NCBI GenBank assembly: GCA_964016885.1
Contig: OZ024748.1
Location: forward strand, 35,898,001 to 35,962,000
Source of the DNA: Eledone cirrhosa
Lineage: Eukaryota
Direction of reading: 5' to 3'
Length of the DNA: 64,000 bases
Below, one piece after another: positions 12,126 through 63,872 of this stretch. The notes under the pieces are model-generated. The model did no database searches. It was given only the letters and a program-made list of their open reading frames with translations, and was not told the DNA's origin. Both the position numbers and the translations under genes were made by a program. Position 1 is the first letter of the stretch; every line of letters starts with the position of its first letter.

Positions 12126-14267
12126 CTTGTGTTGAGCTGGTCATTAATTTATGGTGGTCGTGCGTGGAGTAGAGCAATCGCTAGTTGAAATATTATGAAC
12201 AAAACATTTTTATTTGCCGAAGAACATATTTTCAATACTGTTTGTGAATGTGACGAAGGAAATACATTCTGATATGGAACAGTGTACAAAGTGTGTCTGT
12301 GAATAACATAATGTTACCTCATGTTGTTGTCAAGACATAATGGATTTCGTATATCCAGTTAGAAGATGAAACCTAGCCATCTCGGATTAGTTATATTTCA
12401 TGCCATGTGTAAACGTGTTTGAGGATAGCAAAATATGCGCGTTAATTATAATAATTAGTTAATAATATTACAAAATATACCTAATTAAACTCTTTGCTTG
12501 AAATTTTATCATTCTTCGTTTATATATATATATATATAGAGAGAGAGAGAGGGAGAGAGATTTATCTAGTCCTTCGCTCAAGATTAATCTATAAGTTTAG
12601 ATGTTTGCCTTCGTTTAAGTAAATATTACAGTAAGATTTTTAATATAAACAACTACAAAAAACAATTAATATTAAAACGAAAAAATTATCAATGATAAAA
12701 GAAGCGGATGCAACTTTTTTTTTTATAAAGTTATATTCCTGTTTCTTTAAAGAACATTTCATTTTTGTTCTATTGTAGGCGAAATAATGCAATGGTTTAA
12801 TAGGGAAGATATAACTTACGAATTATGTCTCTAACCGTGTAACGCTTTTTAAGTAGATAACTACAATTGAAAATACTAAAGAAATGGAACCAACAATTCA
12901 ATTTGAAAGTCGTCTAGTGACAGTGTATTACTGGTACTTTATTTTATCGACCCCGTAACGATGAAAGGCAAAAATGCAAATGCTTAAAATTTAAATTGCC
13001 TTAATTCTATCGTCTGCTGTTTCATTAAAGGGAGATTATCGTCTGTATTTAATTCTATCGTCTACTGTTCCACTAAACAGATATACCTCCACTATCGTCT
13101 CTATTTATACATTTTAACTTATAACTTATACACATTTGATTTGAAATATTTTATCTAGTCCCCCCTCTCAATATTATGATGATTTCTTTCGAATGAAACA
13201 GTTCTAGTCCTGTAGAAACCATTTATATATATAATTGAACTGAGTTAAAAATTCACAATATTTATAATTAAATAAGCTCATATATATATGTGTGTATTTA
13301 TCTGTTTATTGTATTATATATAATGTGTGTATATACAGGATGTCCCCCAAAAATATATACACACTTCAACAGCATTCTAATAACTATTGCCTGTACAGGT
13401 AATCAAAGTGTCAATCGAATGTTAGTTTCGTGTTTTAACAGTACAAATTTACAATACACACATAAAACCAGTGTATATACATACATGAGTGTGTATACAC
13501 ATACATGAATGTGTATATACAATATATATGTATATATATATAGACACATATATTCACGGTGCAACGGTACATTAAAATATAGATGCGGGAGAGGGGGGGT
13601 GTATATATAGGGGCGCTGGGGATAAAGGAGTGTAAAGCGTGTGTAATTGATATATTGAAGGAGAGGAGCGTGCAGCGATAGAGTAACAAATATATAGAGA
13701 GGGGGAGAGATGGTATTGAAGGGGAGGAGTGCAAAGCGAAAGAGTAAGAGATATATATAGAGACGGAACAGATAGAGAGAAACAGGCGTAAGTAACAGTG
13801 GAAGAGATATAGAGAGAGGTACTCTGATTGGTTGAAAATTAGCCAATGACATACGATCACCACCACCACGGCTATCTCCGAAAAATTTTTTAAGAAGCTA
13901 CGCATATATGTTAGAACACGAAAAGTGAACATTCTGTTGTTTCACACTTTTCGTGTTCTAACAGATATATATATATTAGAAAGTGAGGTTTTTTTACAAA
14001 ATGAAAAATAACCGAGGTGTTCTACACGAGTGAAAGTATAAAGAAAAAAAGATGAAATCGAAAATGCAACTGAAGTCTTATTTAAAAATATATATTTATT
14101 TGGTTCCTTTACCGGTTTCGCAGTTCTTCTGCTTTTCAAAAGTAGAGTTGAGATGGAGGGTCTGTGGTTTTTCTCACATATATGATATATATATATATAT
14201 ATATATATATTTATATATATATTCAATATATTAACAAATGGAAACTATATTTATAAAACCATATTTA

Positions 14268-14328
14268 TTTCATTATACATATTTCAAGCTCACCAAAGCA
14301 AATTATGGTGCGCTTTCATCAGATAAAA
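14268..14328 (-). ncRNA. Type I hammerhead ribozyme (family A)
   Basis: Reverse complement of ttttat-CTGATGA-aagcgcacca...tggtgagctt-GAAA-tatgtata-atgaaa. Confidence 0.8.
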
Positions 14329-14471
14329 TATAATATAGATCAGTTTTATAAACAAATATTAACATACCCTTAAAGAATGCAACCATGTCGGTTGGAAGCT
14401 CCCGGATAGTTGCATGGTTGCATTCTTTAAGGGTATGTCAATATTTGTTTATAAAACTGATCTATATTATA

Positions 14472-14532
14472 TTTTATCTGATGAAAGCGCACCATAATTT
14501 GCTTTGGTGTCCTTGAAATATGTATAATGAAA
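14472..14532 (+). ncRNA. Type I hammerhead ribozyme (family A)
   Basis: ttttat-CTGATGA-aagcgcacca...tggtgtcctt-GAAA-tatgtata-atgaaa. Confidence 0.8.
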
Positions 14533-61419: not shown

Positions 61420-61443
61420 GTTGGTGGTGAAGAGAAAAGGCAC

Positions 61444-63236
61444 TTACTTCTCTGCGTCCCGGGTATTGGGCTGCACAATTTCCATTAGGGTGGGGGATGG
61501 GTTGTTGGGTGGGGTGGTGGTTTGTGGAAGTGTAGGGGCATCAGTGTGTTGTGTGGTTGGGGTGTTTGGAGTTGTGTGGGTGTTTGGGGAGGGTGTGGGG
61601 TAGTTTTTTAGAAGGACGCGGTTAATGGGCCCGACGCAGGGGGGACCCACGTCCTCTTTAAAGTTGTTTTTTTAAGTTTTATAAGTGTCCTGTGGGGCCT
61701 TAATCATTTTGAGGTGGGGGAAATCGCCTGCCTGGGTGAAGTTAGGCCCTTGGGTTTTTATTACATTGTTGTTGTACACAATGTTTAACAGTTTTTTGTT
61801 TCTTGTGTTTATGTATGTGCATGCATGTTTTTGTTTTTGTGTGGTGTTTTTTGTTTGCTGTTGTTGTGAGCTCTTTTGTGTTGGTGTCAGTGTTATGTTT
61901 TGGGGAGGGGTTGTTTTCATTTGTGTCTCTGAGGTGTGTTTTCTTTTTTTTCTTTTGATTGTGTGGAAGTGCTCCTCCTCGTCTGACGACGAACTAGGGC
62001 CATCTTCCGCGTTGGAGGGGAGGGGTATATTTTCGGGTTGTGTTTGCGGTGCGGGTGTTTTGGAAATTGTTTTTTTTTTAGTGGGGGGGATGGGTTGGAC
62101 ATTGTTTTGTTTTGGTTTGAGCTGTGGTTGTTGTTTTTGTAGTGGTAGTTGTGGTGAGTGTGTTGGTTGTGCAGTTGTTGGTGGTGTAGGCAGGATTGGG
62201 GTTTTCTTATTAAGTTGGGGACAGACAGCCCTCAGGTGACCTCTGGTTCCGCAGAGATAACACGAGGGCCGCCTACCCTCAACGGTAATGTTAATGAAAG
62301 TTTGATCATCCAGTATGACGCGTTCAGGGATCTGGGCGATCCTTTCGGGCCTCATTTGAACTACAAGTTCGAGGCTCGTTCCACTGAACGCGTCACCCGA
62401 TGCTTTTCCCATGGACACCAGCGTGTCATCATCCAGGTTCAGGAAACCTGTCAAAACCCACCATATGTCCATAAACGGCAGGATGGTGTGGATTTTTATT
62501 TTTTGTGTTCTACCCATGTGCGTAGGGTAGAAGGTGTATGCGGTTGATGTGATTGGTTTGATGGACAGTTTCACTGCTGTGTCCCTGTCCTTCATGAGAA
62601 TGGATAGACTCCCGTAGAGTCTATCCTTCTGAATGAAGGTGATGTCCTTCATGACGTCTTTTAAAACCAGCTCTATCTCACTCTGTGATGGTTGAGCTGG
62701 TTTTTTGCTTTTATTTGAGATTGTCCTAAACATGACAGTGTTTAGGAGTCTCTGGCTTTTTAGTTCCGGGGGGGGGGGGGATGGATCGTGAATGAACCAT
62801 TTTCCCCGTACACTATATATTTTTTGGCATCTGCCAATAGCTCCTTCGCTTTGGTTATATCTACTGGCAGATAGTCGAGGGTTTTCCTTGCCGTCTGGGC
62901 GAAGGAGACCCTTTCCCTGCTTGTGTTGCTGTTGTAGTTGGTGGTGGTGTTGCTATCATTGTTGTTGTTATCACAGTTATTGGTCTTGTTGTTGTTGTTA
63001 TTGTTATTGGTGTTGTTTTCGTCCGTCGCATTGTTGTTGTTGTTGTTGTTGCTGGTGCCGCTGGTTCTTTGGTTTGTTGCCATGGCAACGTCAAGTTGTC
63101 GGTCAGCAGGTGGAGAAAATCCTTCCTCTGGCTGACCTTTGTTTTTGACCTCTGCTACTGTGACAGTGGCAAGAGGAAGCTGTAAGTTTATCTTCCCCTT
63201 TCCTCCTTCCAATTTTGGTGAAGAAGCTTCAGCCAT
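61444..63236 (-). pseudogene. ORF1 (gag-like, single CCHC zinc knuckle), frameshifted
   Basis: SFAQ motif, CYLCGTRGHLRAVC, Pro/Gln-rich tail; pieces 62760-63236, 61672-62733 and 61444-61650; first break at a poly-G run (~62768-62780). Confidence 0.85.
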
Positions 63237-63464
63237 TTTTTAAAATGTTAACTTTTCAACAAAAAAAAAACTTTTTTGTTTAACTATTTCGCCTAAAGGC
63301 TGACCAGATCAAAGTTTGACCTGGCAGTCCCTCTACAAAATGGTACAAAAATTAAAGTTTACAGACAAGAATTTCTATAGAAATTTAAACAGAACTTACT
63401 CAGCAAGTTATACGCGTGTGTCCATCCCAGAAGATAGATAGATAGATATATATAGATAGATAGA

Positions 63465-63872
63465 TAAATATACACGGGTGTGTATGATTGTGTATAGAAC
63501 ATTATATTAATAAAAGGAATTTCAACTTTGTCTGATTTACTCGTTTTATTTACAATCCTTTAAAATTTATAATAGTATTAGAATGAAATAGTATGGTAGA
63601 ATATTAAATGTTAAGTGTTAATTGAACAAGTACTTTCATGCTTTCGCAATCTTCAGCTTCATATTCTGTTTGCAATTTTCAAGAAAATTTCAAACTTGAC
63701 TGTCACCACAGAATATGAAACTGAAGATTGCGAAAGCATGAAAGTACTTGTTCAATTAACACTTAACATTTAATATTCTACCATACTATTTCATTCTAAT
63801 ACCATTATACATTTTAAAGGATTGTAAATAAAACGAGTAAATCAGACTAAGTTGGAATTCCTTTTATTAATA
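63465..63872. repeat. Second copy of the 50.5-kb palindromic hammerhead element
   Basis: CTGAAGA-ttgcgaaagcat-GAAA-gtacttgttca at 63721-63754 with a mirror at ~63623-63660. Confidence 0.9.

Follow-up and report, generated by a model that had tools for sequence, protein, structure and literature searches.

Fold-back elements at (TA)n repeats of Eledone cirrhosa as probable short insertion products of PLEs

How do long and nearly perfect palindromes come to lie repeatedly within (TA)n runs, some of them with a ribozyme in each arm? The question is raised by a stretch of 64,000 nucleotides of Eledone cirrhosa (assembly GCA_964016885.1, contig OZ024748.1, positions 35,898,001 to 35,962,000; the window), in which the initial annotation listed ten fold-back elements and proposed that each insertion may make its own inversion by hairpin self-priming during PLE reverse transcription, giving MITE-like elements of retro origin.

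Layout of the fold-back elements

Near-perfect inverted arms are present at all ten listed loci (arms of 52–591 nt, 95–100% matched). In the SSR-masked window, local inverted matches occupy 20 bins, where some loci are counted twice and one is of low complexity, compared with none in each of 30 dinucleotide shuffles. One arm adjoins a (TA)≥4 run in every element, against a background of 1.8% of unmasked positions, and in nine of the ten the opposite arm runs on into a tail of 32–134 nt (32–38 nt in four, 52–134 nt in five), the tail at 36.5 kb being at most 17 nt. With the orientation set by the tail, and by the hammerhead where present, all ten contain an inverted 5′-truncated copy placed head to head. 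The succession of (TA)n, arm, spacer and inverted arm that had been claimed thus exists at all ten places, with a one-sided tail at nine. The element ends sit inside (TA)n, which hides any TSD.

Two elements on the forward strand form family C: 922..1121 (arms 922–980 and 1027–1085, 59/59 matched, 46-nt spacer, 36-nt tail) and 4832..4990 (4832–4883 and 4887–4938, 52/52, 3-nt loop, 52-nt tail). Family A is represented by the element at 14221..14666 (+), with a tail-less inverted arm 14221–14387, a sense arm 14413–14579 (163/167) and an 87-nt tail; its 25-nt spacer (14388–14412) extends the inverted arm to the family A 5′ end. Family B contributes two elements of opposite orientation, 50510..50924 (+) (50510–50695 and 50701–50886, 185/186, 5-nt loop, 38-nt tail) and 63466..63874 (−) (63503–63669 and 63708–63874, 162/167, 38-nt spacer, 37-nt tail), and family D the largest one, 25995..27559 (−) (26102–26692 and 26971–27559, 582/589, 278-nt spacer, 107-nt tail). 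The annotation had described pivots within a family as different or similar: similarity holds for family B, which folds at nearly the same point at 50.5 and 63.5 kb, whereas in the copies at 922 and 4832 the arms are identical and only the spacer sets the two apart.

Four elements have no second copy within the 64-kb window. The first, 1913..2462 (+), has arms 1913–2009 and 2236–2331 (91/96) with indels between them, an inner pair 2009–2056/2119–2163 and a 131-nt tail. The second, 21029..21591 (−), has arms 21163–21375 and 21379–21591 (213/213), a 3-nt loop and a 134-nt tail (21029–21162), and sits in the (TA)n centre of an outer inverted pair, 20881–21011/21589–21719. The third, 24004..24238 (−), combines arms 24036–24135 and 24139–24238 (98/100) with a 3-nt loop and a 32-nt tail, and the fourth, 36509..36806 (−), arms 36526–36656 and 36676–36806 (131/131) with a 19-nt spacer, the right arm lying on (TA)n. 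An unlisted fold-back at 10447..11449 (+) has 211-nt core arms that are 100% complementary, a long spacer and a 46-nt tail; its left arm borders (TA)n, and it holds no credible hammerhead. Sub-threshold Rfam miRNA matches lie at 50655–50741 and 36605–36727.

Hammerhead motifs in the arms

We called hammerheads with our own core-plus-stems descriptor, which gave 12 matches, whereas 100 shuffled sequences averaged 0.02; an Rfam search of 14230–14660 returned no hammerhead family at E ≤ 10. The 14.2 kb element carries type I motifs at 14266..14330 (−) in the left arm and at 14470..14534 (+) in the right arm, with a predicted cut after 14526, and the 50.5 kb element carries minimal outward motifs at 50629–50667 (−) and 50729–50767 (+). 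Degenerate outward pairs are found at 63.5 kb (cores at 63656 (−) and 63721 (+)) and at 26–27 kb, where a clean motif at 27193–27269 (+) faces a degenerate partner core at 26464 (−) that passes neither scan. The claim that many elements carry one hammerhead per arm is only partly right, as it holds for four of the ten, two with clean and two with degenerate pairs; the 1.9 kb element has a single degenerate core at 2173 in its right arm, and no hammerhead was found at 0.9, 4.8, 21.2, 24.0 and 36.5 kb. Since five listed elements lack a hammerhead and four lack a second window copy, it is only their layout that suggests a PLE origin for them.

By sequence descriptor, the motifs of families A, B and D are predicted type I hammerheads with a short palindromic helix III, and the hammerheads show compensatory changes. 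In the literature available in part, hammerheads with such a helix III are known from PLE pLTRs. Each strand of a full hairpin contains only one sense hammerhead, whose stem I has a predicted pairing probability of 0.000, so that within the hairpin no hammerhead is expected to form. Self-trimmed hairpin RNAs, which had been suggested as a product, find no support in this prediction, and long dsRNA from the arms is possible.

Copies, read evidence and the link to a coding PLE

Family A allows the ends of the unit to be defined. One of its six window insertions is a long palindrome. Besides the 14.2 kb element, these comprise (i) a 5′-truncated copy with tail at 14689..14875 (+), in neighbouring (TA)n; (ii) a complete unit with tail and hammerhead (17909–17974) at 17842..18115 (+), which has no inverted arm; (iii) a copy at 36860..37077 (+) that begins with a 37-nt hairpin, continues as a sense arm with a hammerhead at 36972–37037 and stops tail-less at the inner 3′ end; (iv) a copy at 37105..37376 (+), where an inverted tail (37105–37178) is followed by a 13-bp hairpin and a sense arm with a hammerhead at 37269–37330; and (v) an unoriented copy at 57307..57761, where about 185 nt of unrelated DNA separates an inverted arm (57307–57484, hammerhead 57349–57412 (−)) from a sense tail (57670–57761). 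The last two are inversions without duplication. The family has two fixed 3′ ends, an inner end used by four window arms and a tail end used by five, and no conserved reading frame was found across its copies. Inner 3′ ends show a short ATAT-like microhomology to the (TA)n run.

Public reads reproduce these ends. Seventy X1 and two X6 contigs pass from family A into (TA)n at 14579, and one X4 contig leaves the family at 14664. The summed X1 depth, about 135,850 at 14390, is down to 215 at 14411, in agreement with where the five window copies extending to the family A 5′ end begin. Of 45 joints and 37 insert rows in the reads, 15 and 12, respectively, were listed, and most joints are single contigs with a short side of 20–29 nt and a likeness of 82, flagged as weak by the tool. 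Among the matches listed, all 18 converted joints differ; three are inversions without duplication, eight have offsets of 3–15 nt, and in eight both ends lie 3–23 nt downstream of the predicted hammerhead cut. Given 18 different listed joints and fixed family A ends, inversions likely arise anew at each insertion, as the annotation had suspected. A junction almost identical to that of the 14.2 kb element is present in three X1 contigs (depth 152), and some folds therefore recur or were amplified.

Arm identities agree with this origin: within a copy they reach 97.6% in family A (85–94% between copies) and 99.4 and 96.9% in family B (93.0–93.7% between copies), although later gene conversion could also produce identity within copies. 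Family C is uninformative on folding per insertion because its arms are 100% identical between the copies.

An assembly or library chimera could be held responsible for the palindromes, given that the exact 14.2 kb junction is absent among the 24 listed read pieces (6540 more exist) and that the only bridging contig listed shows 14 differing letters. The arms nevertheless carry mismatches and indels, one family was folded twice with 6–7% divergence between copies, and family A head-to-head joints occur in X1 contigs of depth 12–25 and in X12 raw reads from a different study, so that we regard an artefact as extremely improbable.

Family D consists of a 676-nt unit in partial tandem (25995–26974, 304-nt direct repeat with three mismatches), to which an inverted copy (26971–27559) is joined through a 4-nt overlap. 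The unit is ORF-less, with a longest stop-free frame of 74 aa, and no partner ORF for families A–D was found within the 64-kb window. Metazoan non-LTR retrozymes are described, in the available portions of the sources, as ORF-less repeats with type I hammerheads that occur as monomers to multimers and are tied to PLE pLTRs (PMC7229834; bioRxiv 10.64898/2026.07.22.740005); family D and family A (~275 nt) fit their reported range of 51–972 nt. Retrozymes are defined there by head-to-tail tandems with two complete hammerheads and by circular RNA, whereas the DNA analysed here holds mostly monomers in head-to-head pairs: family D amounts to 1.45 direct units with one hammerhead position per strand, copies of families A and B are monomers or head to head, and no head-to-tail tandem with two complete hammerheads was found in the three families. 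The word 'inverted' is absent from the available text of PMC7229834.

Family E provides the link to a coding PLE. A 5′-truncated element at 24732..25901 (+) starts with an inverted 58-nt tail (24732–24789) that stops at the inner site, again an inversion without duplication, followed by an ORF end (24800–25378) and a 3′ pseudo-LTR up to (TA)n. Inspection by eye of this ORF end gave what we take to be linker cysteines and a GIY-YIG-like motif. It matches P0001, an RT-domain protein of 803 aa (E = 5e-32, 56% across 55% of the query length); Pfam returned no family for the piece at 24.7 kb and, for P0001, RVT_1 only below cut-off. An unlisted mini fold-back at 45704..45875 (+) (41-nt arms, 41-nt spacer, 49-nt tail) is built from the pseudo-LTR end and shares its ends with 24732–25901, its spacer extending the tail-less arm, and a pseudo-LTR with a 59-nt tail and no inverted arm lies at 56595..56946 (−). 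At 56.6, 45.8 and 35.2 kb, pseudo-LTR plus tail form a conserved ATG-started frame (MTLPKYNNICF...) with synonymous changes; a pLTR and tail encoding the ORF start have been described for Pen2a.

With these families defined, a DNA-transposon origin can be weighed, in which a palindromic master would give rise to ordinary MITEs or foldback elements, their long TIRs being copied together as one unit. MITEs that target TA microsatellites exist, e.g. MuTAnT (PMC4486113, available in part), and the elements here resemble them in being short and non-coding with near-perfect long inverted arms in (TA)n; the nearly identical pivot in two family B copies, the identical family C arms and the three X1 contigs with a 14.2 kb-like junction would also fit. 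Yet at one end alone the common tail extends beyond the inverted repeat, so that inverted repeats do not form both termini, most family A window copies are non-palindromic, pivots and structure vary, and compensatory changes in the hammerheads together with the beginning of a PLE ORF within the tail point to a retroelement. We consider this reading very unlikely overall and, in families A, B, D and E, already refuted for the most part, in agreement with the retro origin originally proposed.

Origin of the inversions

The elements are real and mostly of a known kind, likely leftovers of truncated PLEs; they show the PLE layout in miniature, and for this reason the surprise is low. In the available parts of the published accounts, the insertion unit of EN+ PLEs comprises a pLTR, an adjoining inverted 5′-truncated pLTR and a one-sided tail (PMC3846280; PMC8557442; PMC8969392), with a palindromic head-to-head junction for which self-priming was proposed in 2013 (PMC3846280) and with (TA)n targets and inverted 5′-truncated copies (PMC8557442). 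The window shares the head-to-head inverted copy, the palindromic junction, the one-sided tail, the AT-rich or (TA)n targets and, in family E only, the ORF start encoded by pLTR and tail, and the 26–27 kb element repeats the plan of two direct plus one inverted copy. It departs from the units described in those parts in that (i) there is mostly no ORF between the arms and units measure 160–1560 nt, (ii) at least 12 units of several families occur in 64 kb, some inverted without duplication, and (iii) tails reach 87–134 nt compared with 30–40 nt.

We consider it probable that the palindromes are short PLE insertion products, whose inversion results from priming by both strands of (TA)n at two fixed RNA start sites. 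In every multi-copy family, the inner 3′ end lies 35–110 nt before a tail end, and both border simple repeat; the subsequent steps are deduced from structure. Following published in vitro work on PLEs, the endonuclease would cleave the AT-rich target on both strands, one of which would prime at the tail end and the other at the inner site. Both cDNAs would extend toward the RNA 5′ end and be joined head to head via short microhomology, where a tail-primed cDNA halting near the inner site would yield an inversion without duplication and overlapping cDNAs a palindrome; alternatively, the inner-primed cDNA would fold back near the RNA 5′ end, be extended and then meet its partner. The back-to-back ribozymes would represent one pseudo-LTR hammerhead copied into both arms, and arms too short to reach it would have none. 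Templates would be the ends of coding PLEs, as seen in family E, or ORF-less PLE derivatives such as the family D unit, and the palindromes are most likely dead-end products rather than a self-propagating class.

For Poseidon PAc from Anolis, both strands of an AT-rich target are cut and extended in vitro, two RT start sites bound the tail, and the hammerhead is dispensable for insertion (PMC11167929). The available sections of that work do not address inverted products, the word 'inverted' occurring once and in a methods context, and it is the present analysis that would connect two start sites with an inverted arm. Two priming events would be needed because the insertions at 24732–25901, 37105–37376 and 57307–57761 are inverted without duplication, beyond what one hairpin can produce. 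L1 elements have a variable second priming site, and their arms are usually not long duplicates, whereas in the window each family would have its own fixed site, with palindromes as a frequent result of overlap. The three insertions resemble L1 twin priming, where a second priming at the target leaves an inverted 5′ part joined to a sense 3′ part by microhomology (Ostertag and Kazazian 2001, via PMC10760644, available in part).

Self-priming alone would need no second priming on the target: the cDNA, as in the initial annotation, or, following Arkhipova 2013, an antisense RNA template would loop back at its 3′ end and generate the inverted arm by self-copying. This idea is in print for head-to-head PLE junctions (PMC3846280, available in part). 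Loops of 3–5 nt (4.8, 21.2, 24.0 and 50.5 kb) and private short hairpins at the 5′ ends of the copies at 36860 and 37179 (37 nt at 36.86 kb, 13 nt at 37.18 kb) favour fold-back over two independent cDNAs, though they are compatible with two cDNAs if both ran to a fixed RNA end. The small offsets in eight of the 18 joints among the matches listed point the same way, but are partly forced by the narrow region of those joints. Self-priming leaves unexplained the fixed inner stop of the inverted, tail-less arm, a site that non-palindromic copies also use, as well as the three inversions without duplication, and a single hairpin is therefore insufficient. In its cDNA version the loop should extend the tail-bearing arm, as it does only at 26–27 kb; at 14.2, 45.7 and 50.5 kb the spacer continues the tail-less arm, which rules out fold-back of a tail-primed cDNA there. 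We judge self-priming alone to be unlikely, and a fold-back step may instead follow two priming events.

Somewhat less likely still is host repair, with breaks at self-complementary (TA)n or cruciforms mended by snap-back or templated synthesis, any sequence beside the run gaining an inverted copy and PLEs being simply the commonest neighbour. The window contains TA-centred tail-to-tail duplications at 16782–16869 and 18093–18166, the outer pair at 20881–21719 and inverted duplications of apparently non-PLE DNA at 7213–7867 and 35733–36311, all of which would suit such repair, as would the ATAT-like microhomology of the inner ends. In the main class, however, the arms meet head to head at a pivot that is not TA, instead of being TA-centred, its layout equals the published PLE unit, and a sequence-blind process is not expected to give fixed, family-specific inner ends or the exact split of tail and arm seen at 24.7 kb.

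Priming at two sites by both target strands thus remains the preferred reading, and such units are prone to being mis-annotated as MITEs or miRNA-like hairpins. The formation of tandem and inverted PLE structures is stated as an open question in the available text of PMC8557442. Because short high-copy families combine a fixed 5′ end and two fixed 3′ ends with many independent pivots, genome data alone would suffice to test twin priming against self-priming, as well as any role of hammerhead cleavage. More speculatively, and with rather low probability, PLE integration here could be obligately two-ended, with a dimeric enzyme that primes both target strands from two fixed positions on the RNA, while cleavage by the hammerhead sets the RNA 5′ end at which many cDNAs turn. 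If so, discrete SINE-like families of ORF-less PLEs would supply the genome with many perfect hairpins already formed, and with them a large amount of potential dsRNA, and would constitute a natural data set on the PLE replication cycle, including an in vivo role for the ribozyme.

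Fold-back architecture and probable link to Penelope-like elements

All ten palindromes described in the initial annotation (near 0.9, 1.9, 4.8, 14.2, 21.2, 24.0, 26–27, 36.5, 50.5 and 63.5 kb) were recovered to within a few bases, with arms of 52–591 nt that match at 95–100%. Masked self-BLAST of the window placed local inverted hits in 20 bins, compared with 0 in each of 30 shuffles. A run of at least four TA units ends one arm in every listed element (background 1.8%), and in nine of the ten the other arm runs on into a one-sided tail of 32–134 nt; the ends are asymmetric, with a (TA)n side and a tail side. 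Two additional elements of the same plan lie at 10447–11449 and 45704–45875.

The ORF end at 24800–25378 aligns to two proteins that contain RT (803 and 888 aa), and the best protein match of the ORF piece is annotated as Octopus vulgaris (56% identity), which makes an octopod host likely. Its cysteine-rich linker and GIY-YIG-like motif, recognized by eye, suggest a Neptune/Nematis-type Penelope-like element (PLE), a clade feature according to PMC8557442. Pfam returned no family for four of five queries (the 24.7 kb piece, two pieces at 46.9–48.4 kb and the 51.7 kb piece). At 25901 the 3′ end of this coding PLE remnant meets (TA)n, and the 58-nt tail of the element is inverted at the opposite end of the insertion. 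The ends of this family (E) recur at 56595–56946 and 35.1–35.2 kb and build the mini-palindrome at 45704–45875, and its pseudo-LTR plus tail forms a conserved ATG-started frame, as is likewise reported for rotifer Pen2a. Family D, at 26–27 kb, is an ORF-less 676-nt unit with a hammerhead ribozyme motif (HHR), present as a partial tandem with an inverted copy and a tail; it follows the published PLE plan of two direct plus one inverted copies, but without the gene. Most tails contain more C than G. A PLE origin is highly probable for families A (14.2 kb), B (50.5 and 63.5 kb), D and E. An AC-rich stem-loop common to the start sites was discarded, a clear short stem-loop being found in family B alone.

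Simple repeats are abundant in the window, which is of animal origin. A second broken PLE-like ORF remnant, with RT-like and GIY-YIG-like motifs by eye, lies at 46871–48408 (+), and another retroelement is represented at 51730–52565 (+) by broken ORF pieces, RT-like/zinc-finger-like, the first of which has no Pfam match. LINE copies 93–98% alike, with AP-endonuclease and RT domains, occupy 57782–61443 (−), 18187–20887 (−), 7975–9375 (−) and 43458–44443 (+); three of the four are truncated, and their 3′ ends adjoin TA-rich repeats. The ORF at 61672–62952, upstream of a LINE, may be LINE ORF1. A satellite with a 48-nt unit (52 copies, 84%) spans 31022–33541, and one with a unit of 50/101 nt (28 copies, 97%) spans 41000–42409.

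Hammerhead motifs and predicted hairpin folding

A descriptor scan of the window yielded 12 type I hammerhead motifs, whereas 100 shuffles averaged 0.02. When six family A copies are aligned, 99.1% of cells pair and two pairs are changed on both sides; 6 of 500 shuffles match this pairing level, and with six related sequences the evidence is weak. Rfam did not recognize the 14.2 kb motifs; none of its 13 matches to 14230–14660 is a hammerhead family. For the whole window, the 150 of 245 matches listed were all sub-threshold and mostly miRNA families on simple repeats. Helix III of the window motifs comprises 1–3 bp and a palindromic loop, a form reported for metazoan and PLE hammerheads, which are thought to act as dimers and are weakly active in vitro (PMC4209133).

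One HHR per arm had been claimed for many of the elements. Outward pairs are present in four of the ten, clean at 14.2 and 50.5 kb and degenerate at 63.5 and 26–27 kb; the 1.9 kb element carries a single degenerate motif, and none was found at 0.9, 4.8, 21.2, 24.0 and 36.5 kb, even when one core mismatch and a stem II of up to 110 nt were allowed. At 10.4 kb, the sole relaxed match has a broken core and sits in the spacer, and was rejected.

Folding speaks against the earlier proposal of self-trimmed hairpin RNAs. The paired motifs of one element lie on opposite strands, and in an equilibrium model, which leaves co-transcriptional and dimer folding aside, the full palindrome pays 87, 67 and 98 kcal/mol for families A, B and D when stem I is forced to form. 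The predicted pairing probability of stem I is 0.000 in the full palindrome versus 0.43–0.49 (A), 0.02 (B) and 0.03 (D) in the single arm. Because the motifs are on opposite strands and stem I is unpaired in the modeled full hairpin, self-trimming of full palindromes is predicted to be unlikely.

Further hammerhead-like repeats occur elsewhere in the window. Three 54-nt head-to-tail units at 24311–24471 (−) form a minimal retrozyme-like array; every unit has a hammerhead core of CTGAAGA together with stem II and a short helix III, and one passes the strict scan. Another solo hammerhead family has two copies, 92% alike and ~100 nt each, at 49045–49104 and 50306–50365 (+), ending at (TA)n. Short repeats at 54377–54454, 56407–56484 and 13177–13228 bring CTGATGA and CTGAAGA words close together and do not pass the scan.

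Ends and head-to-head joints of family A

Family A comprises six window insertions of ~275 nt with a common 5′ start. Four arms use an inner 3′ end, the fixed stop of the tail-less arm, and five use a tail end ~87 nt further on, with (TA)n after each. We aligned four of 14 public sequencing runs to 14224–14665 (6414 contigs from X1, 30,396 raw reads from X12, 25 contigs from X4 and 56 from X6). Exit at 14579 into (TA)n is seen in 70 X1 and 2 X6 contigs and exit at 14664 in one X4 contig, and summed X1 depth falls from ~135,850 at 14390 to 215 at 14411. The public reads repeat the two 3′ ends and the 5′ start of the window copies.

Pivots, the positions of the fold, were derived from window copies and from reads on family A. 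From 15 of 45 joints and 12 of 37 insert rows listed, we converted 18 head-to-head joints, all different, having left out two internal deletions (14281/14314 and 14494/14590), a row confined to one arm (14254/14311) and one with an insert of family sequence (14322/14431). Three reach the 5′ end, and in three the inverted arm runs directly into the tail. Each X1 joint comes from one contig, in most cases with a short side of 20–29 nt, and is weak by itself; four joints come from raw reads of X12 only, a different study (78, 86, 6 and 7 reads). The 14.2 kb junction of the window was not found in identical form among the 24 read pieces listed; a single bridging contig shows 14 letter differences from it, and a near-identical junction occurs in three contigs. 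In families A and B the two arms of one copy resemble each other more than they resemble the arms of other copies; family C (0.9 and 4.8 kb) is uninformative.

Both ends lie 3–23 nt past the predicted HHR cut in 8 of the 18 joints. Clustering of pivots there is not established and remains a lead, since read depth is 3–5 times higher past the cut, where related subfamilies share sequence. At 14504–14510, thousands of X12 reads, as well as an X4 contig, link the 3′ half of family A with another stem II and with a core of CTGACGA; these are related HHR subfamilies with the same 3′ end, found also in reads of another organism.

Proposed priming at the target and other inverted duplications

PLE insertions often carry an adjacent inverted 5′-truncated copy and a one-sided tail, with (TA)n favored (PMC8557442); head-to-head junction palindromes have been attributed to self-priming that uses an antisense template (PMC3846280), and a purified PLE cleaves both strands of the target and extends them, two start sites bounding the tail (PMC11167929). 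From the arrangement of the ends we consider it fairly probable that one target strand would prime at the tail end and the other at the inner site. Two priming sites would account for an inner end that is fixed, for the three inversions that lack a duplication (24.7, 37.1 and 57.3 kb) and for spacers on either arm, which continue the tail-less arm at 14.2, 45.7 and 50.5 kb and the tail-bearing arm at 26–27 kb. The three inversions are comparable to L1 twin priming, itself unvalidated (PMC10760644). Tiny loops and short hairpins at 36.86/37.18 kb suggest that inner-primed cDNA would often fold back near the RNA 5′ end. Hairpin self-priming, which the initial annotation proposed as a possible source of each inversion, may form this part of the path; the fixed inner end and the inversions without duplication argue against its being the whole. 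Against a PLE origin and two priming sites stand the recurrence of some folds, the five listed elements without HHR and the four without a second copy.

Host snap-back repair may operate here as well, in line with TA-centered tail-to-tail duplications, an outer inverted pair at 20.9–21.7 kb and inverted non-PLE DNA at 7.2 and 35.7 kb. The duplications, of ~20 nt at 16782–16869 and 18093–18166, the second of which copies the family A tail end, suggest snap-back synthesis at TA runs. At its left end the outer pair (20881–21011/21589–21719) adjoins an L1/Tx1-like copy that is truncated on this 5′ side, and the (TA)n center of the pair later received the 21.0–21.6 kb fold-back. At 35733–36311 lies a degenerate 580-nt palindrome with a G-run center, grouped with 36804–36863, whose ends we take to resemble Helitron/Helentron-type repeats; a relative of it holds the 36.5 kb fold-back together with a family A copy. 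The inverted duplication at 7135–7867 (155/156 matches) copies part of an element starting CAGTGGCGG, presumably a DNA-transposon-like start, and has between its arms a repeat (7508–7691) related to 14909–15092.

The PLE layout, ribozyme, target and self-priming idea are already in print, and non-autonomous HHR-bearing PLE derivatives are published (PMC7229834; bioRxiv 10.64898/2026.07.22.740005; PMC8969392). A literature search, with most subscription journals outside it, turned up no earlier description of the octopod families or of palindromes with arm and tail but no ORF. The fold-back elements are real, on a PLE layout that is itself known, and two-ended priming and a pivot near the HHR cut remain leads.
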